A DNA stretch of 64,000 nt from Candidatus Methanomethylicia archaeon (GCA_038727515.1 JAVYVS010000001.1:192001-256000); one strand, 5' to 3'. Counted from the first letter of the stretch, positions 19,178 through 62,766 are shown. The notes: generated by a model from the sequence alone, not told the origin. Numbers and translations: made by a program.

Positions 19178-19888
19178 ATGGCCACCACAAAACTAATCCC
19201 CCTCACCATACCAGAACTAAACAAAGCCTTTGGAGGTGGAATACCAATCCCCAGCCTAATATCCATAGAAGGAGACCATGGAAGCGGAAAAACAGTAATC
19301 TCACAACACATACTCTACAGCATGGTGAAAAACGGGATAGAAGCCATAGTAATAACAACAGAAACCACAACAAAGGAATATGTAAAAATGATGCAAACAA
19401 TAAAACTAGATGTAACCAGGGAATACATAAAAGGCAAACTAAAAGTATACTCACTACACATAAGAGAAGGAGCCTGGAGCAAAGAACTAGCACCATACTT
19501 CCTACAAGCCCTAACAAGATTCCTAGAATCAAAAAACACATATGACAAATGCATACTAATAGACGACCTAAGCAACCTAGCACTAAACGTAGACAACATA
19601 AAACTATTAACCTTCATCACAAGAATAAGAAACCTAATCACCACAGGAAAAACCGTAATACTCACCTTCCACCCAAACTTCATAGACCAAGAAATAACAA
19701 GAGTAGTAAAAGCATCCAGCGAAATATACCTAACACTAGAAAGCAAAGTAGTAGGAGGACTCTCCATAAAAACCCTAAAAATAATAAAACTGTGGGGAAG
19801 CAAAGGGGAAAGAACACCCATAATAAACCTAGAAATAAACCCCACACTGGGATTAAGAGTCCTACCCATAGGAGAAGTATCCATATGA
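19178..19888 (+). CDS. arlH: Archaellum KaiC/RecA-like ATPase ArlH
   Basis: FGGGIP, GDHGSGKT, ITTE, IDDLS, TFHP, GLRVLP. Confidence 0.92.
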   Translation: MATTKLIPLTIPELNKAFGGGIPIPSLISIEGDHGSGKTVISQHILYSMVKNGIEAIVITTETTTKEYVKMMQTIKLDVTREYIKGKLKVYSLHIREGAWSKELAPYFLQALTRFLESKNTYDKCILIDDLSNLALNVDNIKLLTFITRIRNLITTGKTVILTFHPNFIDQEITRVVKASSEIYLTLESKVVGGLSIKTLKIIKLWGSKGERTPIINLEINPTLGLRVLPIGEVSI

Positions 19889-21537: not shown

Positions 21538-23072
21538 CCACAATCATACTAATAGCATCAATAACCCCAATCATAATACTAATACACTATGGAAACCAGC
21601 TACTCACAGTAATCTACACAATCATACCAGCATCTATAGCAACCATAACAATAATAAACAGAATGAGTAAAAACATTGGGAAAATGGATATAAAACTTGC
21701 ACTAGCCATCACACACATGTACACACTATCACTAGGACAAACAGAACCAAGAACACTAATAGAATGCATATCACAATCAGATGAATACAAGGAGTATAGG
21801 AAAATCTTCAACACCATACTAAACCTAGCAATAAACCTAGCACAAGGATTAACAAAAGCCATCTCACAAGTAGCAGAAATGGTGAAACCACCATTAAAGG
21901 ATATATTGATAAGAATGGTGGAAGCCTTCTCCACCACAAAACCAAGAGACTACCTAGAACTGGAACACTCAACCATCATGGAAGAATACATGAGCTACCT
22001 AAACAGGACAATAGAAACCATAAGGCTACTTGGAGGAGTATATGGAACCTTCCAAAGCGTAGCCATCCTAATAATCTTAGTAACCATAACCATGAGCATA
22101 TTCCTCATAGACCCACAAACCATAATCCTCTCCTACATAGTATCAGCAACATCCACAATAGTAATACTACTAGCAATAAAACTAGTAACGCCAAGGGACA
22201 TCATGGTATACGCAGGAAAAGACTCCCCACCACACCAAACAGTTAGATATGCAGCCATAATACTAATTCCAACATCAATAATAATATTCATCACAATACA
22301 ATTAACAATAAAAATATCGGCAATAGCCTTCATATCAAGTGGATTAACCATCGCCATAACCGGATACATAGCTAGAAAACTAGAAAAGAAAGTGGCAAAA
22401 TACGATGAATACTATCCCACACTAATAAAAACAATAGGGGAAAACCTCTCAACAACACTAAACCCAAAAAGCGCATTAATATACTCAACACACGTACACC
22501 TAGGCCCACTAAAGAAACACGTTGAACACACCATAAGCTGGATAAACCTAGGATTAGACATAGAAAAATCCTTTAAACTCATGGCAGAAGAAACAGCCTC
22601 CCACACCATAAGAATAATGAATAAAATGCTCATAGACAGCATAAGAGTAGGAGCACCACCAATACAAGTAACAAAAACCATAGCAGACACAACCATAAAA
22701 ATCCTAGAAACAAGAAAGAGGAGAATAGCGACAGCAAGAGGAATGGAAGCCATAATACTAATGATGCACCCCATAACCATCCTAATACTAGCATCCATAA
22801 CCAACATACTAGATAAATTCACAAGACTAATCCCACCCACACAATACATAACACTAAACCCAATACCCACAAACATGATCAACCTTGGAAACATCATACT
22901 AATCTACACACTATCCATAATCAACGCTGCAACCATGACCATAGTTAGAGGAGGCTACCAATGGAGGATAACCCTAAACATAGCCATACTACTAATAATA
23001 AGCGGAATAATGCTCATAGCCTCAGACATAATCACCAACCGCCTACTACCCCCAATAACAATACCAATCTAA
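21522..23072 (+). CDS. arlJ: Archaellum membrane platform protein ArlJ
   Basis: Polytopic, two T2SSF-like cytoplasmic domains; follows arlI. Confidence 0.88.
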   Translation: MERRLTTIILIASITPIIILIHYGNQLLTVIYTIIPASIATITIINRMSKNIGKMDIKLALAITHMYTLSLGQTEPRTLIECISQSDEYKEYRKIFNTILNLAINLAQGLTKAISQVAEMVKPPLKDILIRMVEAFSTTKPRDYLELEHSTIMEEYMSYLNRTIETIRLLGGVYGTFQSVAILIILVTITMSIFLIDPQTIILSYIVSATSTIVILLAIKLVTPRDIMVYAGKDSPPHQTVRYAAIILIPTSIIIFITIQLTIKISAIAFISSGLTIAITGYIARKLEKKVAKYDEYYPTLIKTIGENLSTTLNPKSALIYSTHVHLGPLKKHVEHTISWINLGLDIEKSFKLMAEETASHTIRIMNKMLIDSIRVGAPPIQVTKTIADTTIKILETRKRRIATARGMEAIILMMHPITILILASITNILDKFTRLIPPTQYITLNPIPTNMINLGNIILIYTLSIINAATMTIVRGGYQWRITLNIAILLIISGIMLIASDIITNRLLPPITIPI

Positions 23073-23166
23073 AGGTGATGAAAAATGTTAAAAATAAAAC
23101 TAGACATAAATATTAAAGAACGTTAAAACGAGTTGCCTCCATAAACAACATATGGGGGCATTCAAC

Positions 23167-23475
23167 ATGTCCACAGACAGAATAAAAAACTTCATGAAAA
23201 GAAGAGACAGAATAACAATATACATAAGCATCCTAGAATCAATAATGGAATGCTCCTCAAAAAACGCAACTGGATACGCAAAATTCACACATGTAATGTA
23301 TAGATCAAACCTATCCTCACAAAGACTAAAAGAAAGACTACAAGAACTCTCATACCTAGACCTAATAACATGGGACAACCTAGGAATAAAACTAACACAC
23401 AAAGGAAAAAACTTCCTAGAAGAATACAAAAACCTAATGATAAAAATAGAGAAATACATAAAAATGAGAGATTAA
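23167..23475 (+). CDS. Winged-helix DNA-binding protein (COG3432/HTH_45-like)
   Basis: KRRDRITIYISIL..THVMYRSNLS..LTHKGKNFL. Confidence 0.8.
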   Translation: MSTDRIKNFMKRRDRITIYISILESIMECSSKNATGYAKFTHVMYRSNLSSQRLKERLQELSYLDLITWDNLGIKLTHKGKNFLEEYKNLMIKIEKYIKMRD

Positions 23476-23597
23476 ATCAAACAACCACAACCCCCAAATC
23501 ATATACACAATTAAACACTGAAAAACAAGTTAACCCCACAAAACACACCTAAAATTACACCACAAGAAATATATGTATTGAAAGAGATAGCAAAACC

Positions 23598-24299
23598 ATG
23601 AAATACATGAATAAGAAAATAACGGTTCTATCCATATTCATAATAATATTTCTAACGGCGACAACAGCAAACACATGGACAAAACCAAGCGAACAACTAT
23701 TAGTGATTGAATGGTCCCTGGAAAAAACAGGTCAAACCACGGGCAATAGCATACCCCCAGAAGACAATTCCATGACCAACACAAACTATAAACTATTAAA
23801 CTTCTACTGGCATACAACACCAATAAAATACTATGTAAACCCCTCAAACAAATATGGCTTCACAGCCAACCAAGTTGTAAACATAATCATAGCAGCAGCC
23901 AACACCTGGGACAACCAAACCAGTACAACACTCTTCCAATACATGGGCACAACAACAAAAACTGCTGGGAAGAGGGATGGAATCAACGTAATCTCATGGG
24001 GAGCATACAAAACCGGCGTAATAGCAGTCACATACATATGGTATATTGGAGACACCATAATTGAAACAGACACCAAACTAAACACCTACTATAAATGGAG
24101 TTTAAACGGTGAACCTGGAAAAATGGATCTACAAAACATAATGACACACGAATTCGGACACTGGTGTGGACTAGACGACCTATACACAGACCAAGACTAC
24201 TGGTTAACCATGTATGGATACACAGCCCCAGGCGAAACCTATAAACGCAGCCTTGGACTAGGAGACATACTAGGACTACAGGAAAGGTATGGACCTTGA
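23598..24299 (+). CDS. Secreted matrixin (M10-like) zinc metalloprotease
   Basis: Signal peptide, DGINVISWG, HEFGHWCGLDD, LTMYGY Met-turn, LGLGDILG. Confidence 0.87.
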   Translation: MKYMNKKITVLSIFIIIFLTATTANTWTKPSEQLLVIEWSLEKTGQTTGNSIPPEDNSMTNTNYKLLNFYWHTTPIKYYVNPSNKYGFTANQVVNIIIAAANTWDNQTSTTLFQYMGTTTKTAGKRDGINVISWGAYKTGVIAVTYIWYIGDTIIETDTKLNTYYKWSLNGEPGKMDLQNIMTHEFGHWCGLDDLYTDQDYWLTMYGYTAPGETYKRSLGLGDILGLQERYGP

Positions 24300-24436
24300 A
24301 AAACAAATTTAAATGCCCAATATGCGGAGAAAACTTCAACCAAATAGGGGAACTAGACAAACACCTCCAAGAAAAACATAAAAGAAGGGTTAAACTGAAA
24401 AAGATGGAACACCCAGAGAAAACCATGAAAACATAA
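24296..24436 (+). CDS. Small C2H2 zinc-finger protein (46 aa, not in ORF track)
   Basis: TTG start overlapping the upstream stop; MKNKFKCPICGENFNQIGELDKHLQEKH.. matches F-x-C-x2-C-x3-F-x5-L-x2-H-x4-H. Confidence 0.75.
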   Translation: MKNKFKCPICGENFNQIGELDKHLQEKHKRRVKLKKMEHPEKTMKT

Positions 24437-24476
24437 ACCAATATATACCTTAATAAACATAATGTTTTAACGGTGA

Positions 24477-25409
24477 ATGAAAACGACCCTACACTTCATA
24501 GATCCAAACAAAATCCACTATAAATGGGATAACAGCCTTAAACCAGCCCTAAAAATAAAACCCGGCGACAGAGTAGTATTCGAACTCAGAGACGTCTCAG
24601 ACAATCAGATAACACCAAACTCCACAGTAGAAGACCTAATCAAACTAGATTGGAATAGGGTATACCCACTCTCAGGACCCATATACATAGAAGGAGCAGA
24701 ACCAGGAGACGCACTAATAGTAAACGTTATAGACATTAAATGTAAAGGTTGGGGCTGGAGCGCCATAATCCCAGGATACGGCCTACTAGAAGAATTCGAT
24801 AAACCATACCTATACATCTGGGATCTAAGCGAAGGAACCTACACCACACTAAACAATAAAGCCTACATACCCCTAAACCCCTTCCCAGGAGTAATGGGAG
24901 TAGCACCAGCAAAACCAGGCCAACACCCAATCATGCCACCAGGACCCCACGGAGGAAACATGGACATAAGAAACCTAACCATAGGCTCCACACTAAAACT
25001 CCCAGTACAAGTGGAGGGAGCACTATTCTCCTGTGGAGACGGCCACGCAGCACAAGGAGATGGAGAAGTATGCGTAACAGCCATAGAAGCACCACTATAC
25101 CTAGTCCTAGAATTCAACCTAGAGAAAAACGCTGAACTAGAATACCCCCAAATAACCACATACATAGAACCAGAATTAGAAGCAGGAGAATACCATGTAA
25201 CCATGGGAATAAGCCCAAACCTAATGGAAGCAGCAAAAACCGCTGTTAGACAAATGATCAAACACCTAACCAGAAAATATGGATTCACAAGAGAAGAAGC
25301 CTACATACTAACAAGCATAACATGCCACCTAAAAATAAGTGAAATAGTGGATAAACCAAACTGGATAGTCACATGCCACCTACCACTACAAATACTCATA
25401 GAAACATAA
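24477..25409 (+). CDS. Acetamidase/formamidase family protein
   Basis: PLSGPIYIEGAEPGD, PFPGVMGV, HGGNMD, GDGHAAQGDGEVCVTAIE. Confidence 0.93.
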   Translation: MKTTLHFIDPNKIHYKWDNSLKPALKIKPGDRVVFELRDVSDNQITPNSTVEDLIKLDWNRVYPLSGPIYIEGAEPGDALIVNVIDIKCKGWGWSAIIPGYGLLEEFDKPYLYIWDLSEGTYTTLNNKAYIPLNPFPGVMGVAPAKPGQHPIMPPGPHGGNMDIRNLTIGSTLKLPVQVEGALFSCGDGHAAQGDGEVCVTAIEAPLYLVLEFNLEKNAELEYPQITTYIEPELEAGEYHVTMGISPNLMEAAKTAVRQMIKHLTRKYGFTREEAYILTSITCHLKISEIVDKPNWIVTCHLPLQILIET

Positions 25410-25448
25410 ATAACAATGGGTAAACATAAACTATAATGGTGAACCCCA

Positions 25449-26129
25449 ATGGAAATATTAAAGGGGGAATTAACAGAGAAAGAAATAAAAATCCTATACC
25501 TAGGATACTCAGCAATAATACTTAGAACTAGAAATCACACATTAATCTTCGACCCAGCAAACCTAATTGGGAAAAGAGAAATAGAAGAATTAAAAAATGC
25601 AAGAAACCTAATAACACTATACACCCACGACCACTACGACCATTACGATGAAAAAACACTAAAAGAAATATACAATCAAACACAATGCCCAATAATAATT
25701 GAACCAGCAATGACCATGAAAACAAGCATGATAATACCAAGAGAAAAAATATATCCAGCACAACCAGGAAAAACCATAGAAATCTACGGAGCAAAAATAA
25801 ATGGAATTAAAGGTCTACATAGAGGACCAATAACACTATACCACATAGAAGTAGACAACCTAAAAATATTCCATGGAGGAGACTCAGCATACGTAAAACT
25901 AGAAGGATACAAAGCAGACATAGCCATAACACCCACAGGAGACCCCTCACCCACAGCAAACCCAAAAGACGCATACAACATGATAAAAGACCTAAAACCA
26001 AAAATAGCAATACCCATACATGGATCAACAACACAACACAATGAATTCAAAAAACTAGTGGAAAAGGACATGCCAGAAATAAAAGTGGAATTAATAGAGA
26101 AGGGGAAAACATACACCATAAAAACATAA
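25449..26129 (+). CDS. MBL-fold metal-dependent hydrolase (UPF0173/UlaG-like)
   Basis: THDHYDH, FHGGDS, AIPIHG. Confidence 0.85.
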   Translation: MEILKGELTEKEIKILYLGYSAIILRTRNHTLIFDPANLIGKREIEELKNARNLITLYTHDHYDHYDEKTLKEIYNQTQCPIIIEPAMTMKTSMIIPREKIYPAQPGKTIEIYGAKINGIKGLHRGPITLYHIEVDNLKIFHGGDSAYVKLEGYKADIAITPTGDPSPTANPKDAYNMIKDLKPKIAIPIHGSTTQHNEFKKLVEKDMPEIKVELIEKGKTYTIKT

Positions 26130-26144
26130 TGAAGGGGGATAAAC

Positions 26145-26480
26145 ATGCAGAAACCAACAATAACCATAGAAGAATTCAATAAACTAGACATAAGAGTATG
26201 TAGAGTAATAGAAGCAGAAAGAATACCTGGAAAACAAAAACTACTAAAACTATTGGTAGACCTAGGACCACTAGGAACAAGAACAATAATAGCTGGAGGA
26301 GGAGAACACTACAACCCAGAAGACTACAAGGGAAAACTATTCATAGCCATAATAAATCTACAACCAAAAACCATAGCTGGAATAAAAAGCGAAGGAATGC
26401 TACTAGCAGCAGACCAAAATGGAAAACCAATATGGCTAACAACCATAAGTGAAACACCACCAGGAACCATAATAAGATAA
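26145..26480 (+). CDS. tRNA-binding OB-fold protein (Trbp111/CsaA/MetRS C-terminal-like)
   Basis: FNKLDIRV, KLLKLLVDLG, NLQPKTIAGIKSEGMLLAA. Confidence 0.9.
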   Translation: MQKPTITIEEFNKLDIRVCRVIEAERIPGKQKLLKLLVDLGPLGTRTIIAGGGEHYNPEDYKGKLFIAIINLQPKTIAGIKSEGMLLAADQNGKPIWLTTISETPPGTIIR

Positions 26481-26497
26481 ACTAAGAGGGAAACCAT

Positions 26498-27361
26498 ATG
26501 GAGATAAAAACCATTGGAGTAATCGGAGCAGGAACCATGGGAAGAGGAATAGCACAAATCTTCGCAGAAAACAAATTCCAAGTATTAATATACGATGTAA
26601 ACCCACAAGCATGCATAGAAGCCATAAACACCATTAAAAAACTATTGGATAGAGCAATAGAGAAAAAGGCTAAAACACCAATAGAAGCAGAAGAAACACT
26701 GAAGAGAATAAGGATATGCAATGAAATAAGAGAAGTAGCGGAAAACTCAGATCTAATAATAGAAGCAGTATACGAAGACATAAACGTGAAAAAAGAAGTT
26801 TTCAGAGAAATAGATAAATACGCAAAACCCAACGCCATAATAGCCTCCAACACATCATCCCTAAGCATAACAGAAATAGCCAACACCACAAAAAACCCAG
26901 CCAGAATACTTGGAATACACTTCTTCAACCCACCACAAATAATGAAGCTAGTGGAAATAGTAAAGGGAGAGAAAACATCCAATGAAACCATTGAAAAAGC
27001 CAAGAAGATAATTGAAGGCATAGGGAAAATACCAGTAGAAGTAATAGATTCACCAGGATTCATAGTAAACAGACTCCTAATACCATTCATAAATGAAGCA
27101 ATAGAACTAGTAGCACAAGGAATAGCAACACCCCACAACATAGATACAGCATGCAAACTAGGATTAAACCACCCCATGGGACCACTAGAACTAGCAGACT
27201 TCATAGGATTAGACATAGTACTAGCCATAATGGAAACCCTACACAATGAAACCAGAGACCCCAAATACCGACCAAGCCCACTACTAAAAAGAATGGTGAG
27301 AGCAGGATTACTCGGCAGAAAAACTGGAAAAGGATTCTATGATTACGGTGAGAAAAAATGA
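26498..27361 (+). CDS. hbd: 3-hydroxybutyryl-CoA (3-hydroxyacyl-CoA) dehydrogenase
   Basis: [48 protein letters not shown]. Confidence 0.94.
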
Positions 27362-28125
27362 AGACAACCATCACCAAACAAGAGGGAATAACAAGAATAA
27401 AACTATCCAATCCACCATTAAACCTAATAGACAATGAAACACTAAATGAACTAGAACAACACATAAAAAAGATTGAAGAAGACAATGAAACAAGAATAGT
27501 AATAATCGAGGGAGAAGGAAAAACCTTCTCAGCAGGAGCAGACATAAAAACATTCATGGAAGCAAACCCAGAAAAAGCCTATGAAATCTCCATAAAAGGA
27601 CAAAGGATAATGGAAGCCATAAGAAAATCAGGAAAAATATACATCGCCAAAGTACATGGATACGCCCTAGGAGGAGGATTAGAACTAGCATTAGCATGCC
27701 ACATAACCATAACATCAAAAACAGCGAAACTAGGATTACCAGAAACAACACTGGGATTAATACCAGGATGGACGGGAACACAAATCCTACCAAAACTAAT
27801 AGGAGAGAAAAAAGCCATAGAACTAATATTAACGGGAAACCAAATCACAGGAGAAGAAGCTGAAAAAATCGGATTAATAAACATAGCAGTAGAAGAAGAA
27901 AAACTAGAAGAGAAAACCATGGAAATAGCAAAAAGAATAATGGGAAATGCACCCATAGCAATCCAAAAAGCAAAAAAACTAGTAATAGAAGCAGAAGAAA
28001 AGAAATTAGAGGAAGGATTAAAAAGAGAAGCAGAAGAATTCAAGAAAATATTTGAAACAGAAGATTTAAGAGAAGGCTTAAAAGCCTTCAAAGAAAAGAG
28101 GAAACCAATATACAAAGGAAGATAA
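27358..28125 (+). CDS. Enoyl-CoA hydratase/crotonase
   Basis: [30 protein letters not shown]. Confidence 0.93.
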
Positions 28126-28126
28126 A

Positions 28127-28828
28127 ATGGAAAAAGAAGTAATAGTTAAACTAGAAAACATACATAAAGCCTATAAAATTGGAGAAAACCTATACTGGGC
28201 ATTAAAAGGAATAAACCTAGAAATAAGAAGTGGAGAATTAATATCAATAATGGGACCATCAGGATCAGGGAAAACAACACTACTAAACATGATGGGACTA
28301 CTAGATAAACCAACCATGGGAAAAATAATACTGGAGGGAAGAGACGTAAGCAAACTAGACGATAAAGAACTAGCAAAAATAAGAAACCGAAAAATAGGAT
28401 TCATATTTCAACAATTCAACCTAATAAATAGATTAACAGTACAAGAAAACATTGAACTACCCCTAATAGCAAGAGGAACCCCAAAAAACTTAAGAGAGAA
28501 AATGGCTATAGAAGCACTATTAAAAGCTGGAGGAGAAGAATCATGGCTAAAGAAGAGGCCAAACCAACTCAGCGGAGGACAACAACAAAGAGTAGCCATA
28601 GCAAGAGCACTAGTAACAAACCCAAAAATCATATTAGCAGATGAACCCACAGGAAACCTAGACTCAAACTCAGCGAGAAAAGTAGTGGAAACACTAGTAA
28701 AACTAAACGAAATGGGCCAAACAATAATAATAGTAACACACAACATCGAAGTAGCCAACTCCACACAAAAAATCTACCTACTAAGAGATGGAAAAATAAT
28801 TGGAATAAGAAAACCAGGAGAAACATAA
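28127..28828 (+). CDS. ABC transporter ATP-binding protein (LolD/MacB family)
   Basis: GPSGSGKT, GFIFQQFNL, LSGGQQQRVAIARAL, ILADEPTGNLD, VTH. Confidence 0.95.
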   Translation: MEKEVIVKLENIHKAYKIGENLYWALKGINLEIRSGELISIMGPSGSGKTTLLNMMGLLDKPTMGKIILEGRDVSKLDDKELAKIRNRKIGFIFQQFNLINRLTVQENIELPLIARGTPKNLREKMAIEALLKAGGEESWLKKRPNQLSGGQQQRVAIARALVTNPKIILADEPTGNLDSNSARKVVETLVKLNEMGQTIIIVTHNIEVANSTQKIYLLRDGKIIGIRKPGET

Positions 28829-28876
28829 ATACAATCTACACTAGGTAAAAAAGATTTAAACATATGTAAATAAAAA

Positions 28877-29290
28877 CATAAAATAGGCTTACCATAGCCA
28901 ATGACAAGAGCCCCAGCCTTAATAGGAAGAGACCAAGTAAACGCCCTCAGCCCAATAGAAGAAGTCAATGCCAAAGGAGGAATAAGATCACTGGGAGGAG
29001 CAAGAATAAGACTCTTCGCAGGTGATGCAAAGGGAGACCCAAAAATGGGAGCAGCAGAAACAGAAAAACTAATAACAGAACTCAAAGTAATATACTAGTA
29101 GGCGCATACCAAAGCACTGTAACAGCCACATACAGTGAAACCGCTGAGAGATATGGCATACCCCTCATAAACCCAGACTCCACACCCAAGCCTCACAGAA
29201 AGAGGATTCAAATAGTTCTTCAGAGTTACACCACACAATGGAATACTAGTGAAAAACATGGTTGACTTCGTAAAAGACCTACAAACAAAA
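28877..29290 (+). pseudogene. Decayed fragment of a branched-chain amino-acid ABC substrate-binding protein (LivJ/K-like)
   Basis: KIGLP*PMT..EEVNAKGGIRSLGGA..DAKGDP..EKLI / VGAYQSTVT..AERYGIP / PSLTERGFK*FFRVTP: two in-frame TAG stops, two frameshifts, truncated at both ends. Confidence 0.85.
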
Positions 29291-29548
29291 ACTACCCCAA
29301 GAACTTAAAAGATATGGAATACTAACAAAATTCATTGAATACTCAATAACCATGATGAAACAAGAAGAAATAAAACTATTAGAAGAAAAGATAGAGAAGA
29401 GGAAAAAGGAGTTGGAAACAATAAAAACCCTTGAAGACCTACAAATATTCTAAAACTTAATGTACAAATAAATAAAAACCTAGCCTCACATTTTTCAATT
29501 TAGAAAATTATCCTATACTTCTTCAATCCACCGCAAACATGAAATTAA

Positions 29549-29603
29549 TGGAAACACTAGTAAAACTAAATGAAATAGGTCAAACAATAGTAATAGCAAC
29601 CCA
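29549..29603 (+). repeat. Degenerate direct copy of 28686-28740 (3' part of the ABC ATPase gene)
   Basis: 49 of 55 nt identical by manual alignment; first 22 nt exact (TGGAAACACTAGTAAAACTAAA). Confidence 0.85.
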
Positions 29604-29667
29604 AACAAGATAAATCATACGATTACCGAATATAGATAAATATATATGACGTGAAAACCTTGTATTT

Positions 29668-32511
29668 ATGGAGAATATGAAGAAGACAACCATACTTATC
29701 ATAGCCCTAATATTTAGCATCCTAATACTAGTATACTGTAAAGCAGAGACTATAAACTTCCAAATACTAAATGTAACTTGGAAAACCACAGCCAACACAC
29801 CAGCATACCCAGGAAGCAGAAATGTACAGCTAAGAATAGAATTGAAATATAATGGTACAGAAACCATATATGCATGTAACGGTAGAATAGGGGATCTACC
29901 AAACGGAGTAACCCCAAGTGCAGGACAGGGATATATAAGCCCAGCAAGAAACCCCAATGGAACAACGGTAACCACCCTATATCCAGGAGACATAATATAC
30001 TTCACATACCAACTTGACATAGAGAAGACAGTTCAACCTGGAAACTACACCATAACCCTAACAATAAGCTATAGAACTGGAACATGGATAACTGTTGAGG
30101 AAAAATACCAAATAAACATAAACATAAACAGTTATCCACCAATAAATATCAGCATTATAGATGCATATTTCACACCATCCCCATACCCAAACACATTAAA
30201 CACAAATCTGAGGGTAACCCTTAGAAATAATGGCGAATCAAGAATAACAGGTGGAACAGTAAAACTAAATCTCCCAAGCAACTTCAACCCCACAGAAATG
30301 AAACTTCAACTTCCAGCCATAGATTTAGGTGGACAAGCAACCATAGAATTCAACAATATAAACATAGCTGAAAACACGCAGCCAAACATTTACACAGCCA
30401 CTATACAATTCAATGCCACACTACAAACAAGAGACGGCGTTACATACAACGATACCATAACGAGAAATGTAAATGTAAAAGTTGACCCAACGCCAAACCA
30501 CCTAAAAATACTCATACCAACAACACTACAATGGGGTGAAACGAGACCAACACCCACATATCAAAACACTAGATACACAGCCTTAACCATAACAATAATG
30601 AATAATGGTGGATACGATGCACAGGGGATAACAGCCACAGTAGAATCACAATACCTAAAACCAGTAAAACCAGTAGACACATATCAAGGAAGATTAACCA
30701 CTGGAGGAACATGCACAATAACCCTATACTATGACGTAGACCCATATACACCATTAAAATTCAATATACAAATAACATTATCATACTGGGTAGATCTAGG
30801 TGGAGGAACCATGACCAAAATCACATCCACACACACTCAAACAATAAACATAGAGGAAATGCCGAGGGGTGGAGGAACAGAAATAATATCCACCACATGG
30901 CAAAACAATATAAACGTATACCCAAACACTGAAAACGCTACACTACAAATAACCATAGCCAATAAACAACCATACACAATAAGAGGTTTAAAAGCCACCC
31001 TAAAACTTCCAAATGGTATGAGTGGAAACAATGGGGAATACTCTACAACCTACATTAATGGGCCAATACAATCCTATGCAACCACCACAATACCAATACA
31101 AATAAGTATTGGAGAAATAAAACCGGGGAAATACAAGGCAAAATTAACCCTAGAATACATTGCAGAAACAGGAGGACCTGGAACAAAATTCATAGATCAA
31201 CATGAAATAACAATAAACGTTATAAGCGATATAGAAGCCATAGAAGTAATAAACGTATACTGGATGCAATCAACAGTGGAACCAGGCACATACGGTGCAA
31301 CACTAAGAATAGACATTAGAAACAACTATATAGACGCCATGAATGGCCCAATAATGGAAATAAAACTTCCAAAGGGATTCATAAACGCCTTCGACAATAA
31401 AAGCAACACAATAAAAGTAACACCAGTAACACAACAAGCAATACAACAATTAATACAAACACCAACAAACCTACAAACAATACTCACATTAATGCAAACA
31501 TCAACACAACAAAAACAGCAATATACAAGAGGAGAAACACTAACATTCATAGCACCCATAAACATACATGTAAACAAAACTGGAATATACCATGCCAATA
31601 TAACACTATCATACATTGATGGATGGGGATGCAAAAGAACAGTGGAAGAAACCATTGAAATACCAATACTTGGAGCCACAAAATTCATAAATGCTGAAAT
31701 AAGTGGGAGAATAAACATAAAAAGTAGGTATACCACATTAAACCTAACATTAAATTGCATTGGAAGTTCACCAGCATACAACGTATACATAACCCTAAGA
31801 TCACTACAAACAAACCCAATACTAATAGCAACACCATCAAACATATACCTAGAAAAACTACATGGAGAAATAAACATACCAATAAAATTCGCATACAACC
31901 CCACAGCATCACAAACAGCCCTAGGAGCAACAACAATGATAAACTATGGAGTAATACCCATATCAATACAAATACAATATAGAGATGCCTCTGGAAATCA
32001 ACACACATATGAAACAACAATAGCAGTAGCCATAGAACCATACATAGACCTAATAATAAAGGAATTAAAAGCTGAATTAACCAATGGAAACCTAAAGATA
32101 AGTGGAACAATAATAAACTATGGTTCAGCCACAGCCTACAGAGTAAAAATACAAACAAAAACATTAAAAACAAAAACCATAGGTGAAACATACATAGGAG
32201 ACATAGAAGCAGGAGGACAAGCAGCCTTCAGAATAGATTTAAAGGGTGTAATGGAAACAGAGGAAAAAGCAGAAATAACAATAATATATCAAAACATATT
32301 CAATGAACAATACATGAGAAGCATAGAAACAGAAATAACCAAAATTGAAATCACAACACCAATAGTAAAACAAGAAGAAACACCAATAACAAGCCTACAC
32401 ATAATAACGATAGCAGTAATAATCTTCCTAGCAATCATAGGATTAATATCATATAAAACCTATAGAAACTACATGAGAAAATTAAAACTAATGGAAATCG
32501 GTGAAAAATAG
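29668..32511 (+). CDS. Large surface protein with repeated Ig-like/COG1361 (S-layer-domain) modules
   Basis: Signal peptide, repeated W..(Y/E)P(G/N)..L.I.(L/I).N..PG.Y modules, C-terminal TM with basic tail. Confidence 0.75.
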   Translation: MENMKKTTILIIALIFSILILVYCKAETINFQILNVTWKTTANTPAYPGSRNVQLRIELKYNGTETIYACNGRIGDLPNGVTPSAGQGYISPARNPNGTTVTTLYPGDIIYFTYQLDIEKTVQPGNYTITLTISYRTGTWITVEEKYQINININSYPPINISIIDAYFTPSPYPNTLNTNLRVTLRNNGESRITGGTVKLNLPSNFNPTEMKLQLPAIDLGGQATIEFNNINIAENTQPNIYTATIQFNATLQTRDGVTYNDTITRNVNVKVDPTPNHLKILIPTTLQWGETRPTPTYQNTRYTALTITIMNNGGYDAQGITATVESQYLKPVKPVDTYQGRLTTGGTCTITLYYDVDPYTPLKFNIQITLSYWVDLGGGTMTKITSTHTQTINIEEMPRGGGTEIISTTWQNNINVYPNTENATLQITIANKQPYTIRGLKATLKLPNGMSGNNGEYSTTYINGPIQSYATTTIPIQISIGEIKPGKYKAKLTLEYIAETGGPGTKFIDQHEITINVISDIEAIEVINVYWMQSTVEPGTYGATLRIDIRNNYIDAMNGPIMEIKLPKGFINAFDNKSNTIKVTPVTQQAIQQLIQTPTNLQTILTLMQTSTQQKQQYTRGETLTFIAPINIHVNKTGIYHANITLSYIDGWGCKRTVEETIEIPILGATKFINAEISGRINIKSRYTTLNLTLNCIGSSPAYNVYITLRSLQTNPILIATPSNIYLEKLHGEINIPIKFAYNPTASQTALGATTMINYGVIPISIQIQYRDASGNQHTYETTIAVAIEPYIDLIIKELKAELTNGNLKISGTIINYGSATAYRVKIQTKTLKTKTIGETYIGDIEAGGQAAFRIDLKGVMETEEKAEITIIYQNIFNEQYMRSIETEITKIEITTPIVKQEETPITSLHIITIAVIIFLAIIGLISYKTYRNYMRKLKLMEIGEK

Positions 32512-33731
32512 TGTACACAATAATACTGGATTCAATAAAACTTGCAATAAAAACATTAAAAGAGAGGAAAATTAGATCAACACTAACAATAATTGGAATA
32601 ACCATTGGACCAATGATAATAGTAATGATGGGATCAGTAGTCTCAGGATACTCCAATTACATTGTAAACCAAATATCCACACTAGGACAAAACACAGTAA
32701 TCATATACCCAGAATCGGGATACACCCTTACACAAGACGATTTAAACTATATTAAAAACCTAGAATACATTGAAGATGCAGAACCCTTCTATGCCACCCA
32801 AGGAATAATAAAGAGAGGTGGAAGTGAAATACAAGTATACATATACGCCATAAAAACAGAATTAATATTAAAAGCCATTGGAGGACTAGAAATACTCAAT
32901 GGGAAAAACCCAAGTGAAGGAAGTACAATAGAAGCATTAATAGGATATAAAATAGCATACGACCAAAATGGGGAAAACCATTACAATATTGGAGACGCCA
33001 TAACAATAACCATAAGAGAAATCCAAGGGGGGAAAATAGCAAAAATAAGAAATATAAATGTGATAGTATCAGGAGTATTAAGTGAATATGGAGGAGCACT
33101 ACTACTAAGCCCAGATCAAACAATAATACTAAACACTGAAGCAGGAAGAAAACTCCTAGGATTAAAGAATTGGAGTGGAATAATGATAATATTAAAAAAC
33201 TCAGAATACATAGGTGAATTCACATCCACCATGAGGGAAACATATAATGGGAAAATATCCATAATAGCCTTTGGAGCCATAGCCAACATAGCCACAAGCA
33301 TAACGAGAGCAATAAACTTCATAAACTATACAACATCAATATCAACATTAGCAGTAGCCATAGCGGGAATAATGGCAACCATGATAACATCAGTAATAGA
33401 AAGAACAAGGGAAATAGGGGTAATGAAGGCAGTAGGCTTCACAAATCAACAAGTAATCATACTAATACTCATGGAAGCATTAACCATGAGCATAATAGGG
33501 GGAACCATAGGAATAACACTAGGAATAATAGGGGCATATACACTATCAAGCCAGGGACTAAGAATAACCAGTGGAACAACAACCATAATAATAACAGCAC
33601 AACCAGAAATAACACCACAATTAATAACATCCACCATCATACTAACACTACTAGTGGGATTAATAGGTGGAGCACTACCATCATACATGGCAGCAAAAAT
33701 ACCACCAGCAACAGCATTAAGATACGAATAA
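32511..33731 (+). CDS. ABC transporter permease (MacB/FtsX family)
   Basis: RKIRSTLTIIGITIG, SVIERTREIGVMKAVG, AAKIPPATALRYE. Confidence 0.93.
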   Translation: MYTIILDSIKLAIKTLKERKIRSTLTIIGITIGPMIIVMMGSVVSGYSNYIVNQISTLGQNTVIIYPESGYTLTQDDLNYIKNLEYIEDAEPFYATQGIIKRGGSEIQVYIYAIKTELILKAIGGLEILNGKNPSEGSTIEALIGYKIAYDQNGENHYNIGDAITITIREIQGGKIAKIRNINVIVSGVLSEYGGALLLSPDQTIILNTEAGRKLLGLKNWSGIMIILKNSEYIGEFTSTMRETYNGKISIIAFGAIANIATSITRAINFINYTTSISTLAVAIAGIMATMITSVIERTREIGVMKAVGFTNQQVIILILMEALTMSIIGGTIGITLGIIGAYTLSSQGLRITSGTTTIIITAQPEITPQLITSTIILTLLVGLIGGALPSYMAAKIPPATALRYE

Positions 33732-55802: not shown

Positions 55803-56585
55803 ATGTATTTTGAACCATTACCAATAGTGATATCAAAAGATAATAGGGTAAGTGTTTTATATGTAATGTTTAGCAAGGAAGCAATACATGAAATAGGAAT
55901 ATTAAAAGATTTAAGTGAGATAATTGCTGAAGAAGGAATACCAATAATAAAGTTTTTCAGTAGTAATTCCAATGTGGCAATTTTCATGGATACCACTGAT
56001 GAAGCAAAGCTATCTAAAGTTTTAGAGAAATTGAAGAGTAGAGTAAAATACGTGGAAAACTTTGGGATACATATATCAGATATTAAGGGGTTTGCATCAA
56101 TTTCAAATTCATATCCAAAATTATTTGGTGAAAGAATATTGATACTACGTGAAACAGCATTCAAATCACTAATAGAATGTATACTGGAAAATCTAAAGAT
56201 AACTCCACAAATAGTGTTATACTTAGTTGGTAGAAGAATGGGTGAAGAATACTACAAAAGCCATCGAGAAATATTTAAAACAGACTTAGAATCCACTGTG
56301 AGAATCGCAGAGAAATTATTTACATTAACAGGTTTTGGAAGGTTGGAGGTTGTTAGAAGGAGTTTTGATCCATTAGAGATTGAGTATGATGTTTATGATT
56401 GTATTGAGTGTAAGATTAATTTTGAAGCTGGTAGGAAAATTAAATCATCACTAATAAGAGGATTAATAGAAGGATATTACACAAAACTATTGGGAAGAGA
56501 AGTAGAATGCATAGAAGAAGAATGCATAACACAAGAAAAAGAAAAATGCAAATTCAAAATAAAACCAATAGAAATAAAAGCATAA
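55803..56585 (+). CDS. ACT-like + V4R domain protein
   Basis: GILKDLSEIIAEEGIPI ACT-like motif; GFG..YDCIEC..LIRGLIEG..EEEC..KCKF. Confidence 0.8.
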   Translation: MYFEPLPIVISKDNRVSVLYVMFSKEAIHEIGILKDLSEIIAEEGIPIIKFFSSNSNVAIFMDTTDEAKLSKVLEKLKSRVKYVENFGIHISDIKGFASISNSYPKLFGERILILRETAFKSLIECILENLKITPQIVLYLVGRRMGEEYYKSHREIFKTDLESTVRIAEKLFTLTGFGRLEVVRRSFDPLEIEYDVYDCIECKINFEAGRKIKSSLIRGLIEGYYTKLLGREVECIEEECITQEKEKCKFKIKPIEIKA

Positions 56586-56619: not shown

Positions 56620-58506
56620 ATGGGTTTAGTTGATGAATTTGAGTGGTTAGAGAATATTGAGGATTCAAAGGTTTTGGATTGGGCTAGGAATTTGAATTTA
56701 AAGTTTAAATCTGAATTTAATGTTCTTTCAGATAATATTTATCCTAGGGTTCTTGATGTTTATAGGTTTCCAATAATATTAGTTATGAATTTAACTAGTA
56801 GAGGTATATATTTACTTGTTAGAGAATATGATTCTTATAAAATTAGATTATTGAATTTTGATGGAGAATTAAGTGACATTGTTGATTCTAAGGATTTAGG
56901 GAGGGATATTGTTATACATAGTTTGTATTCAAATGCTTCTGGAAGTAGGATTGCATATGCATATTCTATTGGTGGTTCTGATGAAAGTAAAATTAAGATT
57001 TTAGATGCATTTTCCATGGAGGAGATTGATGAACTTGAAGGTTTTGTACATTCGATAACTTGGATTGATGATGAGAGATATTATTATGTTAGAGCTTTTA
57101 GGAGGGGTTTAACTCCCGATGGTGTTAAGCCTCCAGCCACTAGAATATTTTTGAGGGAAAATGGTTCTGAAACCTTTATTGAAAGTATTAAACCTCCATC
57201 AATGCACTATATTGATTTGAGGAGTTCAAATCATGGTGATAAAGCTTTATTAACTATTAGTTGTGGTTGGGTTGGAGTTGAATTTTGGTCTGGAGATCTT
57301 GATAAACCTGAAGATTGGAGGCATGTATATGGTGATTTGAAATCTATAACTGAACCTATGGATTACATTAATGGAAGGTATATAGTCATATATTATGGTT
57401 CAGAGGGTAATGGTGATGTTAGGGTTGTTTGGGATGGAGGATGTGAAATTATAGTGGGGGAGGATGATTTAAATCCAATTTTAGGTGGAATTGTTACTGA
57501 TAATGGGATTATACTGCATAAATTGTTTAATGCATCTTCAAAATTAGAGTTTTATGATTTTAATGGTGTATTTATAAGGAGATTAGATTTTCCAAAACCT
57601 GTAACTATTAGGAATTTACAGTATTGTAATGGTAAAACTACATTTAAAGTTGAATCTTTCTTAATGCCATATCAGATACATCTCCTCCATGATGATAAAC
57701 ATGAAATTCTAGCTTCCATGGAGATTGATTTTGATCATGAGATAATTGAAGATACAGCTGTATCAAGAGATGGAACAAGGATACATTTCTTTATGGTTAA
57801 AGGTAGAGGTAAACCTATTGATAAAGTGCTGCTTTATGGTTATGGTGGATTTAGAATATCTTTAACTCCAACATTTACACCTATAGTGAAGATATTATTG
57901 GAGGATGGATTGACATATGCTGTTGCAAATATTAGGGGTGGATTGGAGTATGGGGAGAAGTGGCATAAGGCTGGAATGCTACATAATAAGCAGAATGTAT
58001 TTGAGGATTTCAAAGCTGTTATAAAGAAGCTTAAGAGTTTTGGAGCTAAGGTGGCTATTACCGGTAGGAGTAATGGTGGACTCTTAGTCTCAGCAATAAT
58101 AACTCAAACCCCTGAAATTGTGGATTGCGCAGTAATTGGATATCCAGTGATTGATATGCTTAAATTTCATAAGCTTCACCCTGGAGTAGCAAAATTATGG
58201 ATTTTAGAATATGGAGATCCAGAAAACCCCTTTGATAGGGAATATCTATTAAAGTATTCACCATATCACAATTTAAAGTCAAACTTAAAATATCCACCAA
58301 CAATGATTTACACTGGTTTAAAGGATGATAGAGTTCATCCAGCTCATGCATTAAAATTTGCAGCTAAACTTCTAAGTGTTGGAGCTAATGTTTATCTTAG
58401 GCTTGAGGAAATGAGTGGTCACATAGGTGCATCTCCAGAAGTTAGAGCGAGAGAGGAATCTGATATTCTAGCTTTTATATATCATTTCCTTAAGGTTTAC
58501 CGCTAA
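56620..58506 (+). CDS. Prolyl oligopeptidase (S9A)
   Basis: YGYGGF, NIRGGLEYGEKWH, GRSNGGL, DDRVHP, SGH. Confidence 0.94.
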   Translation: MGLVDEFEWLENIEDSKVLDWARNLNLKFKSEFNVLSDNIYPRVLDVYRFPIILVMNLTSRGIYLLVREYDSYKIRLLNFDGELSDIVDSKDLGRDIVIHSLYSNASGSRIAYAYSIGGSDESKIKILDAFSMEEIDELEGFVHSITWIDDERYYYVRAFRRGLTPDGVKPPATRIFLRENGSETFIESIKPPSMHYIDLRSSNHGDKALLTISCGWVGVEFWSGDLDKPEDWRHVYGDLKSITEPMDYINGRYIVIYYGSEGNGDVRVVWDGGCEIIVGEDDLNPILGGIVTDNGIILHKLFNASSKLEFYDFNGVFIRRLDFPKPVTIRNLQYCNGKTTFKVESFLMPYQIHLLHDDKHEILASMEIDFDHEIIEDTAVSRDGTRIHFFMVKGRGKPIDKVLLYGYGGFRISLTPTFTPIVKILLEDGLTYAVANIRGGLEYGEKWHKAGMLHNKQNVFEDFKAVIKKLKSFGAKVAITGRSNGGLLVSAIITQTPEIVDCAVIGYPVIDMLKFHKLHPGVAKLWILEYGDPENPFDREYLLKYSPYHNLKSNLKYPPTMIYTGLKDDRVHPAHALKFAAKLLSVGANVYLRLEEMSGHIGASPEVRAREESDILAFIYHFLKVYR

Positions 58507-60874
58507 CTTTAGGTTTAAAGAAATCCGTTAAAGTTTTAGTTTTACCTAAACTCATTATTTGTTCTTCCCTTACTCCAAATACTTCTAGTATTCTTGAAAC
58601 TGCTGGTAAAACTTGATTTGAAATATAGTATTCTACATCCAATTGATCTTTTGAAGCCAACATGTATGGTATAGCCCTTTCATAAAGTTTCCCAGTACCA
58701 ATGGAAATTATGTATCCAACTTTATCACCTAGTGAGAGGCTGAAGCCTTTTTCCTTAAGTATCCTTGCAGCTTCAACATGTGGAGCTTTAACTTCATATT
58801 CACTTAAATCCTTGGTTAAAGTCTTCCAAATAATATACTCTTTGAATGGTATTTCTCCCTTCCTCATTCTTCCAATGAAACTTCTAATGAAATCTAAAGC
58901 TTTATTAACACCTTCACCATGCATAATTATCTCTAAAACCCTTTCTTGAGCAATCTTAGCCACATTAGCCCAATCTCCACGAACCACTTCCAAACCAACA
59001 AAATCCAATCTACCATCTTCAAGTAATCCACAATACCTCTTTTTAGCTTCAGTAAACAGTATTCTAACATAAACTTTATCTATCCTAGCTTCAAAACCAA
59101 GTTCACTTCTAATTCTACCCAACAATTTCTCCACGAGTTCAGGTTTATATTCTACGAATAAGCTATCAGTATCACCATAAACAACTTTTAAACCTATTTC
59201 ACTGGAGATTTTAAGAGTATTTGAAATTAGACTTCTACCCCAAGCAGTTACAGCTTCAGCTACAGGTTTAATATACCATCTAGCACCAATCCAACCAGCA
59301 TAACCATACATGGCATTTGAAATAACTTTTATAGCCTTCTGTCTAGCATCTAAAACCTTATATAATGGATCTTCTGAGCTTAAACTCTTAATTACACTTC
59401 TAATGTTATCTCTAACTTCAATTAAAGTTTTCAATACATCCCTATAGAATCCTGGAGGATCCCTTCTAAATCTATGTTTAACTTCAGGTGCAATGTATAC
59501 TCCACACGGTGGCTCAGGTTCTTCTGGTGGTATATATGTATCTGGGGAAACATTATATGTTAACATTATACTTGGATACATACTTCTAAAATCTATTACT
59601 GCAACATTTTCATGTAATCCAGGTTTAGGTTGTAAAACTATTGCTCCAGCATAGGGTTGATATAATACTTCCTTCCTCTTTGGAACAAGTTCACCAAATC
59701 TATATGCATTCCTAATCAAGAACCATTCAACTCTAAATCCAACAGCAGCTGTACCAATGAAATCCAATGGTAAACCAACGAGATATGATAATTGAATTGC
59801 AAAATCAATTATGGCTCTATAAACACCCATAATCCTCTTAACGTTATCCATGGAATACCTGTATAAATCCCCTCTTCTATTTGGATCACGCCAATAATCT
59901 TGAACTTCAAAATCCTCTATTACACCCTCAGCCTTCATAACTCCAAGATACTCAGCAATATTCTCTAAACTCTTAACTTTAACCTCTTGAAATTCATCTG
60001 CAAAATCAAATAGATCAAGATTTATCCTACCAGTAATAGATATATGCCCATACAAACTTGTATGTGGTTCACTTCCAACTCTATCAATACATAACTTTAA
60101 ACCATTCCTTCTAGCTCTCTCCAATAAGTATGGTATAAGTCTAGAATTAGAACCATAACTGACAATTATATCTGGATCATATGAATTCACATAATCAATG
60201 AACCTCTTTAAAATATTTAAATCACTTAGATCTTCACCTACAGTAAACATCTTTTCTACGCCATCACCATCAATAGTTGAAATTACAATTATAGGGTCTT
60301 TCTCAGGTTTTGGTGAGCCAGATGAACTTAAACAAATAAACCAAAATCCAAGAATCTTAAGTTTTGGAATACTTGGATCTTCAATGGATATAGGTTTATC
60401 AAGAGCTAAATAGATGGAATCAACCTTAACATTACCATACCCATCTAAAGGTTCACAATCCACTTCAATCCATCCACAAGGTCTAATTCCATTATCAATT
60501 AAATATCTAAGTGTAAATCTAATATCATATTCATAAACATCTAAAATATTTGGTAAACCCTTAACTTTAGAAGCAGTATCATCCACTCTATCTGGATCAC
60601 TACAATAAATTTTTAAAGCTTTAACATTCTTACCAAAAACCTTTCTTTCACAAACTTCAAAACCAATTACATTACGTGGAAAAAGTCTAAGAATACTATT
60701 ACCAATATCTTCAGCATTAACATCACCTTTTAAAACAGCATAGAAATATGGTTTAAACCTTCTATCAACAATAAGAATTCTACGTTCATCACTTGTTATA
60801 CCCCAAAGCCACACCTCTGGAATTCCATTTCTAAATTCATAATTTAAATCCAAAAGCCAAAATTTAATCTTCAA
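58490..60874 (-). CDS. polB3: Family B DNA polymerase, PolB3 type, with degenerate 3'-5' exonuclease
   Basis: DFRSMYPS, KVISNAMYGY, YGDTDS and KKRY intact; C-terminal PIP-like TLTDFF; exonuclease acidic residues absent. Confidence 0.93.
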   Translation of the reverse strand: MKIKFWLLDLNYEFRNGIPEVWLWGITSDERRILIVDRRFKPYFYAVLKGDVNAEDIGNSILRLFPRNVIGFEVCERKVFGKNVKALKIYCSDPDRVDDTASKVKGLPNILDVYEYDIRFTLRYLIDNGIRPCGWIEVDCEPLDGYGNVKVDSIYLALDKPISIEDPSIPKLKILGFWFICLSSSGSPKPEKDPIIVISTIDGDGVEKMFTVGEDLSDLNILKRFIDYVNSYDPDIIVSYGSNSRLIPYLLERARRNGLKLCIDRVGSEPHTSLYGHISITGRINLDLFDFADEFQEVKVKSLENIAEYLGVMKAEGVIEDFEVQDYWRDPNRRGDLYRYSMDNVKRIMGVYRAIIDFAIQLSYLVGLPLDFIGTAAVGFRVEWFLIRNAYRFGELVPKRKEVLYQPYAGAIVLQPKPGLHENVAVIDFRSMYPSIMLTYNVSPDTYIPPEEPEPPCGVYIAPEVKHRFRRDPPGFYRDVLKTLIEVRDNIRSVIKSLSSEDPLYKVLDARQKAIKVISNAMYGYAGWIGARWYIKPVAEAVTAWGRSLISNTLKISSEIGLKVVYGDTDSLFVEYKPELVEKLLGRIRSELGFEARIDKVYVRILFTEAKKRYCGLLEDGRLDFVGLEVVRGDWANVAKIAQERVLEIIMHGEGVNKALDFIRSFIGRMRKGEIPFKEYIIWKTLTKDLSEYEVKAPHVEAARILKEKGFSLSLGDKVGYIISIGTGKLYERAIPYMLASKDQLDVEYYISNQVLPAVSRILEVFGVREEQIMSLGKTKTLTDFFKPKVSGKP

Positions 60875-61905: not shown

Positions 61906-61916
61906 TTTTTTTTTTT
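61906..61916 (+). terminator. oligo-T terminator after rpl13e
   Basis: T11 run about 34 nt after the stop. Confidence 0.55.
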
Positions 61917-61950
61917 GGAAGAAATTATAGTTATTCTGGGCGGCATTAAG

Positions 61951-62766
61951 ATGGCTGAAGGAGAAGGTGAAACTGAGATTTTCTATCCAAAGGAGATCAT
62001 GACTTTACAACTACATAAACCTTGTAAAATAGCTACTATACGTGTTGAAATAGACCCAGAAGCATATTATAAGGTTGGTATACTACATGATCTTTCAGAA
62101 AACTTCTATGTTCACGGAATAAATATTTTAGGTGTATATTCAACGCAGTATCCAGACCAATATGGATACATAACGTTTTTTGTAGATGTAACTCAAGTTG
62201 CGGAAAAGGTTTTAGATGAAGTTTCAAAATCTCTTAGGGGTATTGATGGAGTTGTAGATGTAATGGTTTATGTAAGCCCAGTGGAAGGCGTTGCAGTAGA
62301 CCCAAAGACTATGCCACTTGCTATGGGTTCCAGAGCTATAATACTCATGAAACATAGCTTTAAGTGTATTGTCGAGGAATTTCATAAGAGGAGGTGGTGG
62401 CTTCTATTGAATGCTCTTGGTAAAGAAATTGGAAAGGCAGGTTTTAGGGATCATGAGAGATTTGTGGGAAGAGATATTGATAAACTCTTTAAAATGGCTG
62501 AAATTAGGTTTTCAGTGAGTGGATTCGGTTTTTGGGAGACTGTGAAAGCAGATGTGGATTCAGGGGAGTTCATTATAAGGGTTCATCATTCCATTGAATG
62601 TGATATTGGACTTGAAATTGAGGGTTATACTGGTTCACACTTTGTTAGAGGTATGATTGAAGGTTGGCTTATGGAGTTAATGGGTAAAAGTGATGTTACA
62701 GGGTTTGAAGCGAAATGTCTTGCTAGAGGAGACCCCTACTGTGAATTTCATTTCAAAATTAAGTGA
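61951..62766 (+). CDS. ACT-like + V4R domain protein
   Basis: GILHDLSENFYVHGINI; GFG..HHSIEC..FVRGMIEGW..EAKCLARGDPYCEF. Start moved to 61951. Confidence 0.83.
   Translation: MAEGEGETEIFYPKEIMTLQLHKPCKIATIRVEIDPEAYYKVGILHDLSENFYVHGINILGVYSTQYPDQYGYITFFVDVTQVAEKVLDEVSKSLRGIDGVVDVMVYVSPVEGVAVDPKTMPLAMGSRAIILMKHSFKCIVEEFHKRRWWLLLNALGKEIGKAGFRDHERFVGRDIDKLFKMAEIRFSVSGFGFWETVKADVDSGEFIIRVHHSIECDIGLEIEGYTGSHFVRGMIEGWLMELMGKSDVTGFEAKCLARGDPYCEFHFKIK

Follow-up and report, generated by a model that had tools for sequence, protein, structure and literature searches.

The PolB3 enzymes Pfu, KOD and Vent are textbook high-fidelity proofreading polymerases. The closest described relatives of the enzyme reported here are the crenarchaeal PolB3s, namely the Pyrobaculum calidifontis polymerase (solved structure 5mdn) and the Dpo3/PolB3 enzymes of the Sulfolobales. 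These proteins keep the four acidic residues (DEDD) at the metal-binding positions of the exonuclease site, and the Sulfolobales enzymes have exonuclease activity (PMC7785828). In the Sulfolobales, PolB3 can be dispensed with and is linked to repair; in T. kodakarensis and M. maripaludis no polymerase other than PolD is essential (PMC8782868, PMC7785828). This report describes a PolB3-type family-B DNA polymerase gene (58490-60874, minus strand) in a 64,000-nucleotide stretch of DNA from a Candidatus Methanomethylicia archaeon (GCA_038727515.1 JAVYVS010000001.1:192001-256000). The whole stretch is called the window, and all coordinates are counted from its first letter. The window PolB3 resembles the crenarchaeal enzymes in its polymerase motifs and in the length of its fingers loop, but it is without all four exonuclease carboxylates. 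The reading favoured here is that it is a non-proofreading accessory polymerase from an old clade of such enzymes.

The PolB3 gene and its motifs

The open reading frame begins with TTG and encodes 794 amino acids. Family-B membership is indicated by the Pfam model DNA_pol_B (PF00136; 217 bits, 4.9e-64), and the exonuclease domain is recognized by DNA_pol_B_exo1 (PF03104; 88 bits, 6.7e-25), each with a cut-off of 23. Among solved structures, the best HMMER match was 5mdn (750 bits, residues 4-786). Thermococcales PolB enzymes scored about 410 bits, and Sulfolobus PolB1 (1s5j) scored only 135 bits, in the polymerase part only. Thus, the protein is a PolB3-type enzyme. Both the scores and the tree place it in the PolB3 group of Makarova et al. 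2014 (B3 of Kazlauskas et al. 2020), and in the trees it nests among Thermoproteota PolB3s with the euryarchaeal PolB3s as outgroup. It is a full-length polymerase with the domain order and length of the crenarchaeal PolB3s. The AlphaFold2 (AF2) model has a mean predicted local distance difference test (pLDDT) score of 88.5, and its exonuclease domain was modelled confidently (blocks of 75-96). Foldseek returned 5mdn as the top match of this model, with a template modelling (TM) score of 0.84-0.87, and the matches to 5mdn and the Thermococcales enzymes spanned TM 0.84-0.89. The characters that define PolB2 (a degenerate motif C with one Asp, a missing ExoIII and an operon with RadA-like and arCOG07300 genes) were not found for the window protein.

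An earlier note, made from the sequence of this stretch alone, had reported that the three exonuclease motifs are altered between 59840 and 60360. The HMMER alignment to 5mdn, which is gap-free at these motifs, the alignment of homologues and the translation all agree with that reading, and the span does run from ExoI to ExoIII. ExoI (60335-60346, minus strand) reads FWFI in place of FDIE (W178, I180), with LGFWFIC of the window paired with LAFDIEV of 5mdn. ExoII (60125-60157, minus strand) reads YGSNSRLIPYL in place of YNSNxFDWPYL (G241, R245, L246) and is paired with YNSNGFDWPYL; here the Asn has become Gly and the Phe has become Arg, in addition to the lost Asp. ExoIII (59843-59857, minus strand) reads YSMDN in place of YxxxD (N344) and is paired with YVLDD. 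The four metal ligands, which are D141, E143, D215 and D315 in Pfu, correspond to W178, I180, L246 and N344. Where a proofreading-proficient PolB3 carries DxE in ExoI, Nx2-3FD in ExoII and Yx3D in ExoIII, the window PolB3 has W, I, L and N.

The polymerase motifs, read from alignment and translation on the minus strand, are intact. These are motif A, DFRSMYPS (59570-59593), with the catalytic D428 and the steric-gate Y433; motif B, KVISNAMYG (59303-59329); and motif C, YGDTDS (59162-59179), with D568 and D570. The catalytic D428, D568 and D570 and the polymerase motif residues are invariant in an alignment of 22 diverse relatives. The flanking segments GSPKPEKDPII and DPDIIV are retained and the KKRY motif is intact. 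A PIP-like box (resembling a PCNA-interacting peptide), TKTLTDFF, is encoded at the C-terminal end (58517-58540, minus strand). It has no canonical Gln but has L-x-x-F-F, and the pattern xLT[DE]FF is also seen at the C-termini of the 120 nearest homologues. The tail that holds it (residues 777-794) has pLDDT below 50 in the AF2 model and is disordered. The alignments therefore confirm the conservation of flanks, polymerase motifs and tail stated in the earlier note. Judged by these residues, the polymerase site is intact, the exonuclease is predicted to be unable to bind its metals, and the protein would bind PCNA through its C-terminal tail.

Clade, selection and host lineage

All 120 nearest homologues, mostly named Bathyarchaeia, are without the ExoI and ExoIII carboxylates and have perfect polymerase motifs. 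Their ExoI reads F-S-x-I/V-C and their ExoIII reads F-S-x-x-N. The ExoII Asp is kept in most of these homologues and was lost only in the seven closest (P0001-P0007). In the Bathyarchaeia the replacements are conservative and conserved (FS[IMT]IC, FSMEN), whereas in the window's family they are large hydrophobic residues (W, I/T, L/I) that vary by genus (WILN vs WTIN). Relatives with 68-99% identity to the window PolB3 have the same exonuclease state. When representatives at 50% identity were used, most of the nearest clusters (E 1e-233 to 1e-150) were exonuclease-degenerate, and 110 of the 151 PolB3 representatives were DEDD at the four ligand positions.

A FastTree analysis of 92 PolB3s recovered a clade of 38 rows, with 100% support, in which the exonuclease is lost in every member. 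It holds 28 Bathyarchaeia, with the window's family as their sister (99% support), together with Methanodesulfokora (Korarchaeia), metagenome-assembled genomes (MAGs) labelled Geothermarchaeota and 'Thaumarchaeota', and two other families of the window's class (f4 and f5, see below). Only two changes of exonuclease state are needed on the PolB3 tree. The window PolB3 also belonged to the exonuclease-dead clade when the Exo motif columns were left out (IQ-TREE, 100% clade, 18 rows). Exonuclease loss is an old trait of a large PolB3 clade and is not peculiar to the window genome. A literature search of limited reach on PolB3 and its exonuclease returned no description of an exonuclease-dead PolB3 clade. 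Three clearly archaeal PolB3 contigs (L051, L056 and L091) are filed under bacterial MAGs (Acidoferrum, Limnocylindrales and Acidobacteriota), and these public records were probably misbinned.

The ratio of non-synonymous to synonymous substitution rates (dN/dS), calculated for two genomes of the window's family (a pair that does not include the 91%-identical relative), was 0.074 over the full gene, with values of 0.082 in the exonuclease domain and 0.040 in the palm. Over the 120 homologues, mean identity was 55% in the exonuclease domain, 47% in the N-terminal domain and 68% in the palm. Three hot-spring metagenomes, each from a different study, also yielded contigs that carry the gene, and its frame is free of indels in all of them. 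These contigs differ from the window PolB3 by 22 synonymous and 11 non-synonymous changes, none of which is at a motif. Because DEDD is the state of most representatives and the altered state recurs in all three metagenomes, the replacements are not due to chance or error. The gene is not decaying, and the loss of its exonuclease residues is kept under selection. In addition, four contigs from one metatranscriptome map onto the gene, and this weakly supports expression.

The names of the best PolB3 matches suggested that the host belongs to the Bathyarchaeia. This was rejected because the relatives of its PolB1 are Methanomethylicia: the PolB1 of the window genome is 82-85% identical to proteins named Candidatus Methanomethylicia, and about 56% identical to proteins of Nezhaarchaeales and Methanosuratincola. 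The GTDB class of the host was represented by 46 genomes of at least 80% completeness, including Nezhaarchaeales- and Methanosuratincola-like members, and its families are labelled f1 (the host's own) to f9 here. The PolB3s of f1 are of the WILN/WTIN type and are 69-75% identical to the window PolB3. Families f2 and f3 of the same order keep ExoI and have lost the ExoII and ExoIII Asp (DQTS, DEVA, DEVS), with 44-46% identity. The PolB3s of f4 and f5 lie in the exonuclease-dead clade at 42-44% identity, those of f7, f8 and f9 are DEDD at 46-49% identity, and in f6 PolB3 was not found with the window PolB3 as query.

The PolB3 of the window's family groups with the Bathyarchaeia enzymes and away from the PolB3s of its own order. 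The IQ-TREE topology was unchanged without the Exo motif columns. The approximately unbiased (AU) test rejected a grouping of the f1, f2 and f3 PolB3s (p = 6.6e-44) and monophyly of PolB3 across the whole class (p = 5e-7). Thus, the PolB3 of this family would be a xenologue or an old paralogue and not the vertical copy of the order. Either transfer with replacement or the sorting of an old paralogue would account for the Bathyarchaeia-like PolB3 in f1, and this was probably a transfer, in which case the gene was borrowed.

The native PolB3s at the f2/f3 loci (L018-L020, L023 and L025) keep the ExoI D and E and have perfect polymerase motifs, but their ExoII Asp has become V or T and their ExoIII has lost both Tyr and Asp (HSxxA/S). 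From these motifs, f2 and f3 are predicted to be a second, independent route to a proofreading-deficient PolB3, in which ExoII and ExoIII of the order's own copy are degenerating.

Polymerase inventory and the probable role of the enzyme

The window genome (1.59 Mb, 12 contigs) is 93.6% complete. A second family-B gene encodes an 875-residue polymerase of PolB1 type with DIE, NGDDFD and YCFRD intact. PolD is also present, both as DP2 and as a DP1 in which the phosphoesterase motifs DLH, GDIVD, GNHD and GHLH are intact. PCNA had one match, and no PolY, PolB2 or third PolB was found in this genome at its level of completeness. Within the class, families f1-f5 and f8 have PolD, no PolD was seen in f7 and f9, and 17 of the 24 f6 genomes carry it. 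The Nezhaarchaeales-like families f7 and f9, in which PolD was seen in 0 of 10 genomes, carry an exonuclease-intact PolB3. PolY was restricted to f6, the family without PolB3 (13 of 24 genomes), and was found in none of the 22 PolB3-bearing genomes, the window genome included. In one f6 genus (g15, four genomes), none of PolD, PolB3 and PolY was seen. All five Bathyarchaeia genomes checked had PolB3, a PolB1-like gene and PolD. When exonuclease state was set against PolD in 72 rows, 34 had a lost exonuclease with PolD, 29 an intact one without PolD, 7 an intact one with PolD and 2 a lost one without PolD. Since there are only two independent changes of exonuclease state on the tree, these counts are descriptive and are not a statistical test.

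The window PolB3 is probably an active DNA polymerase that acts as a PCNA-tethered, non-proofreading accessory enzyme of the old exonuclease-dead clade, with the exonuclease domain kept as a folded scaffold that could no longer proofread. Bulk accurate replication would most likely be carried out by PolD, with its intact DP1 nuclease motifs, by PolB1, with its intact exonuclease motifs, or by both. PolB3 would most likely be tethered to PCNA by its C-terminal tail, and it may serve to fill gaps, to synthesise DNA during repair and to extend past lesions or mismatches, tasks for which proofreading may be unneeded or even a hindrance. An accessory role in damage tolerance or gap filling is favoured by the polymerase inventory, the distribution of PolY and the literature. 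An archaeal family-B enzyme can bypass lesions only once its exonuclease is inactivated, and the bypass ability of Tgo-Pol came from a longer fingers loop together with exonuclease loss (PMC4150786). The analysis establishes the residue states, the selection, the fold, the phylogeny and the set of polymerases, and we infer the enzymatic activity, the PCNA binding and the cellular role.

Several points weigh against this reading. First, the longer fingers loop that marks bypass is not present: in the 5mdn alignment the loop is no longer than that of the exonuclease-intact P. calidifontis enzyme. Lesion bypass is thus not implied by the sequence. The earlier note had proposed an active, PCNA-binding, non-proofreading polymerase suited to lesion bypass or strand displacement, and the first part of this proposal agrees with the intact polymerase site, the lost metal ligands and the conserved PIP-like tail, while the suitability for bypass does not follow from the fingers loop. 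Secondly, a relative in f8 with PolD retains an intact exonuclease site, and no PolD was seen in at least two exonuclease-dead lineages, so the argument from redundancy with PolD is loose. Third, the metatranscriptome contigs may derive from DNA carried over in the library. Fourth, PolB3 may be a regular fork polymerase that is proofread in trans.

It is unlikely, though worth weighing, that the enzyme is an analogue of Pol alpha, which would extend the products of primase over a short distance and then hand off to PolD or PolB1. The exonuclease-dead clade does occur mainly in lineages with PolB1, PolB3 and PolD together (all five Bathyarchaeia genomes and f1-f5), and Pol alpha is a precedent for a family-B enzyme in which the exonuclease domain was retained but inactivated (PMC7544198, PMC12680538). 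However, there is no primase fusion and there are no primase neighbours at the PolB3 locus, the window PolB3 has no Zn domain of the Pol alpha type at its C-terminus, and archaeal primase has been reported to synthesise the DNA part of the primer itself (PMC8782868).

It is rather improbable that the exonuclease domain has gained another activity or a binding role, for example in keeping hold of a mismatched 3' end until DP1 or PolB1 removes it in trans. The greater constraint on this domain than on the N-terminal domain, and the conservative replacements and retained ExoII Asp of the Bathyarchaeia, would fit such a role. The bulky, genus-variable replacements in the window's family are unlike a newly built site.

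The suggestion that the exonuclease-dead PolB3 copies one strand at the fork and that its errors create strand asymmetry appears very improbable. The earlier note had offered a contribution of this kind as speculation, and had allowed that the link would fall if genomes with an exonuclease-dead PolB3 showed no unusual skew. The asymmetry itself is real. The plus-strand A/T skew at third codon positions does not change sign with gene orientation and keeps its sign over hundreds of kb, and the third-position G/C skew follows gene orientation, with G over C on the coding strand by about 0.28. The orientation-independent component of third-position A/T skew, |S_AT|, was calculated for segments of about 20 kb, and its median in the window genome was 0.244 (62 segments of 22 kb). 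However, 32 exonuclease-lost loci, mostly from Bathyarchaeia and several from hot springs, had a median of 0.040, and 32 exonuclease-intact loci had a median of 0.029. The two sets do not differ (p = 0.57), and the window genome is far above the exonuclease-lost loci (p = 3e-11). The link to PolB3 thus failed in the comparison across genomes.

Within the class, strong skew was found only in families with a degenerate exonuclease, namely f1 (0.29-0.31) and f3 (0.23 on two long contigs), and the exonuclease-intact f7-f9 were weak (0.04-0.08), as the link would predict. On the other hand, f2, f4 and f5, which are all exonuclease-degenerate, were also weak (0.04-0.10), as were another f3 contig and two other f3 genomes (0.06-0.09). 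The skew is patchy even within genomes, with contig 2 of G006 at 0.07. Families f1 and f3 share the skew yet carry different PolB3 clades, so the skew follows the organism and not the enzyme; they also form one order, so the association within the class amounts to one event. In addition, the strongest skew of the window lies in a block that starts with an archaellin/pilin operon; this suggests a local cause rather than one acting wherever the polymerase does. The skew is a trait of the organism's order and does not occur in the lineage that has the sister enzyme, and an exonuclease-dead PolB3 is clearly not sufficient for it. PolB3 may contribute to the skew, with no positive support beyond the one phylogenetic event.

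The extreme block (16723-33731, plus strand, and about 200-250 kb on C1 of the genome) consists of co-directional genes with third-position A/T skews of +0.55 to +0.89 and third-position G/C skews of -0.19 to -0.67 on the coding strand. It starts with an archaellin/pilin gene (16723-17481), followed by a T2SSE ATPase gene (19549-21537) and a T2SSF-like gene (21522-23072). The gene just upstream (15819-16685, minus strand) has an A/T skew of -0.81 when read on its own coding strand, so its bias on the plus strand is the same. From 33.7 to about 54 kb of the window, genes of either orientation show an excess of A on the plus strand, by about 0.4. On the scale of replichores the A/T skew is about 0.25 (C1-C6); for example, C2 is negative over 308 kb and C1 is positive from 300 to 678 kb. 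The sign on C1 changes near 200, 255 and 300 kb, and the PolB3 gene is close to the change at about 255 kb.

It is hardly credible that the gene is a decaying remnant or that its substitutions are assembly errors, even though the catalytic residues of one domain are lost and the absence of PolB3 from the whole of f6 shows that the gene can be lost, since the frame is unbroken, dN/dS is about 0.07, the polymerase residues are all invariant, and the same state in relatives and in three metagenomes, together with the verified translation, led to rejection of a pseudogene or assembly error.

The neighbours of the PolB3 gene (a peptidase S9, V4R/ACT proteins, an ATC-hydrolase-like protein and ArsB) are unrelated to replication. 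A conserved gene neighbourhood was considered and rejected, as only the V4R and thioredoxin-reductase-like genes are common to a genome of the same family. The window encodes three paralogues with a V4R domain, of which two also have an ACT domain (55803-56585, plus strand; 61915-62766, plus strand; and 15819-16685, minus strand). Two of these genes flank the PolB3 region, and a V4R gene adjoins PolB3 in the same-family genome L007.

Comparison with known polymerases

A large natural branch of PolB3 in which proofreading is switched off and the domain remains under selection means that a division of labour between accurate and inaccurate family-B polymerases evolved in archaea as well as in eukaryotes (Pol alpha and Pol zeta). 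Several aspects are new. The exonuclease-dead type occurs outside the Bathyarchaeia, in a host whose relatives carry another type of PolB3, which is a phylogenetic conflict. The fourth carboxylate, the ExoII Asp, is lost as well, and partial loss has occurred independently in sister families. PolB3 and PolY are distributed in a complementary manner, and the skew link fails across genomes. There may also be practical uses for thermostable family-B polymerases that are exonuclease-minus by nature.

Tentatively, the exonuclease-dead PolB3s could form a distinct and mobile functional class, equivalent in archaea to Pol alpha and Pol zeta, that arose once in Thermoproteota with three polymerases and can displace the native PolB3 of a lineage, as in f1, while the native PolB3s of sister families lose ExoII and ExoIII independently. 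If this possibility is correct, there would be recurrent selection against proofreading by PolB3 once PolD and PolB1 are present.

Three further systems are close to the window PolB3. Archaeal PolB2 (Dpo2), a translesion extender, is a family-B enzyme without a working exonuclease and acts in damage tolerance (PMC8764526), as may the window PolB3. However, PolB2 has a degenerate motif C and no ExoIII, and lies in an operon with RadA-like and arCOG07300 genes (PMC4104785, PMC7544198), whereas the window PolB3 has perfect polymerase motifs, an ExoIII region and unrelated neighbours. Eukaryotic Pol alpha and Pol zeta combine an active polymerase with a retained, inactivated exonuclease domain and work beside proofreading replicases (PMC7544198), and in this they are like the window PolB3. 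They belong to another PolB clade and have C-terminal Zn/Fe-S domains and dedicated subunits, none of which occur with the window PolB3. The exonuclease-dead PolB3s of the Bathyarchaeia are the sister group of the window's family (99% support), are 57-60% identical to the window PolB3, have lost the ExoI and ExoIII carboxylates, and share the xLTDFF tail. They differ in mostly keeping the ExoII Asp and in having Ser at the first ExoI position, where the window's family has Leu/Ile and Trp, respectively, in a host of the Methanomethylicia.

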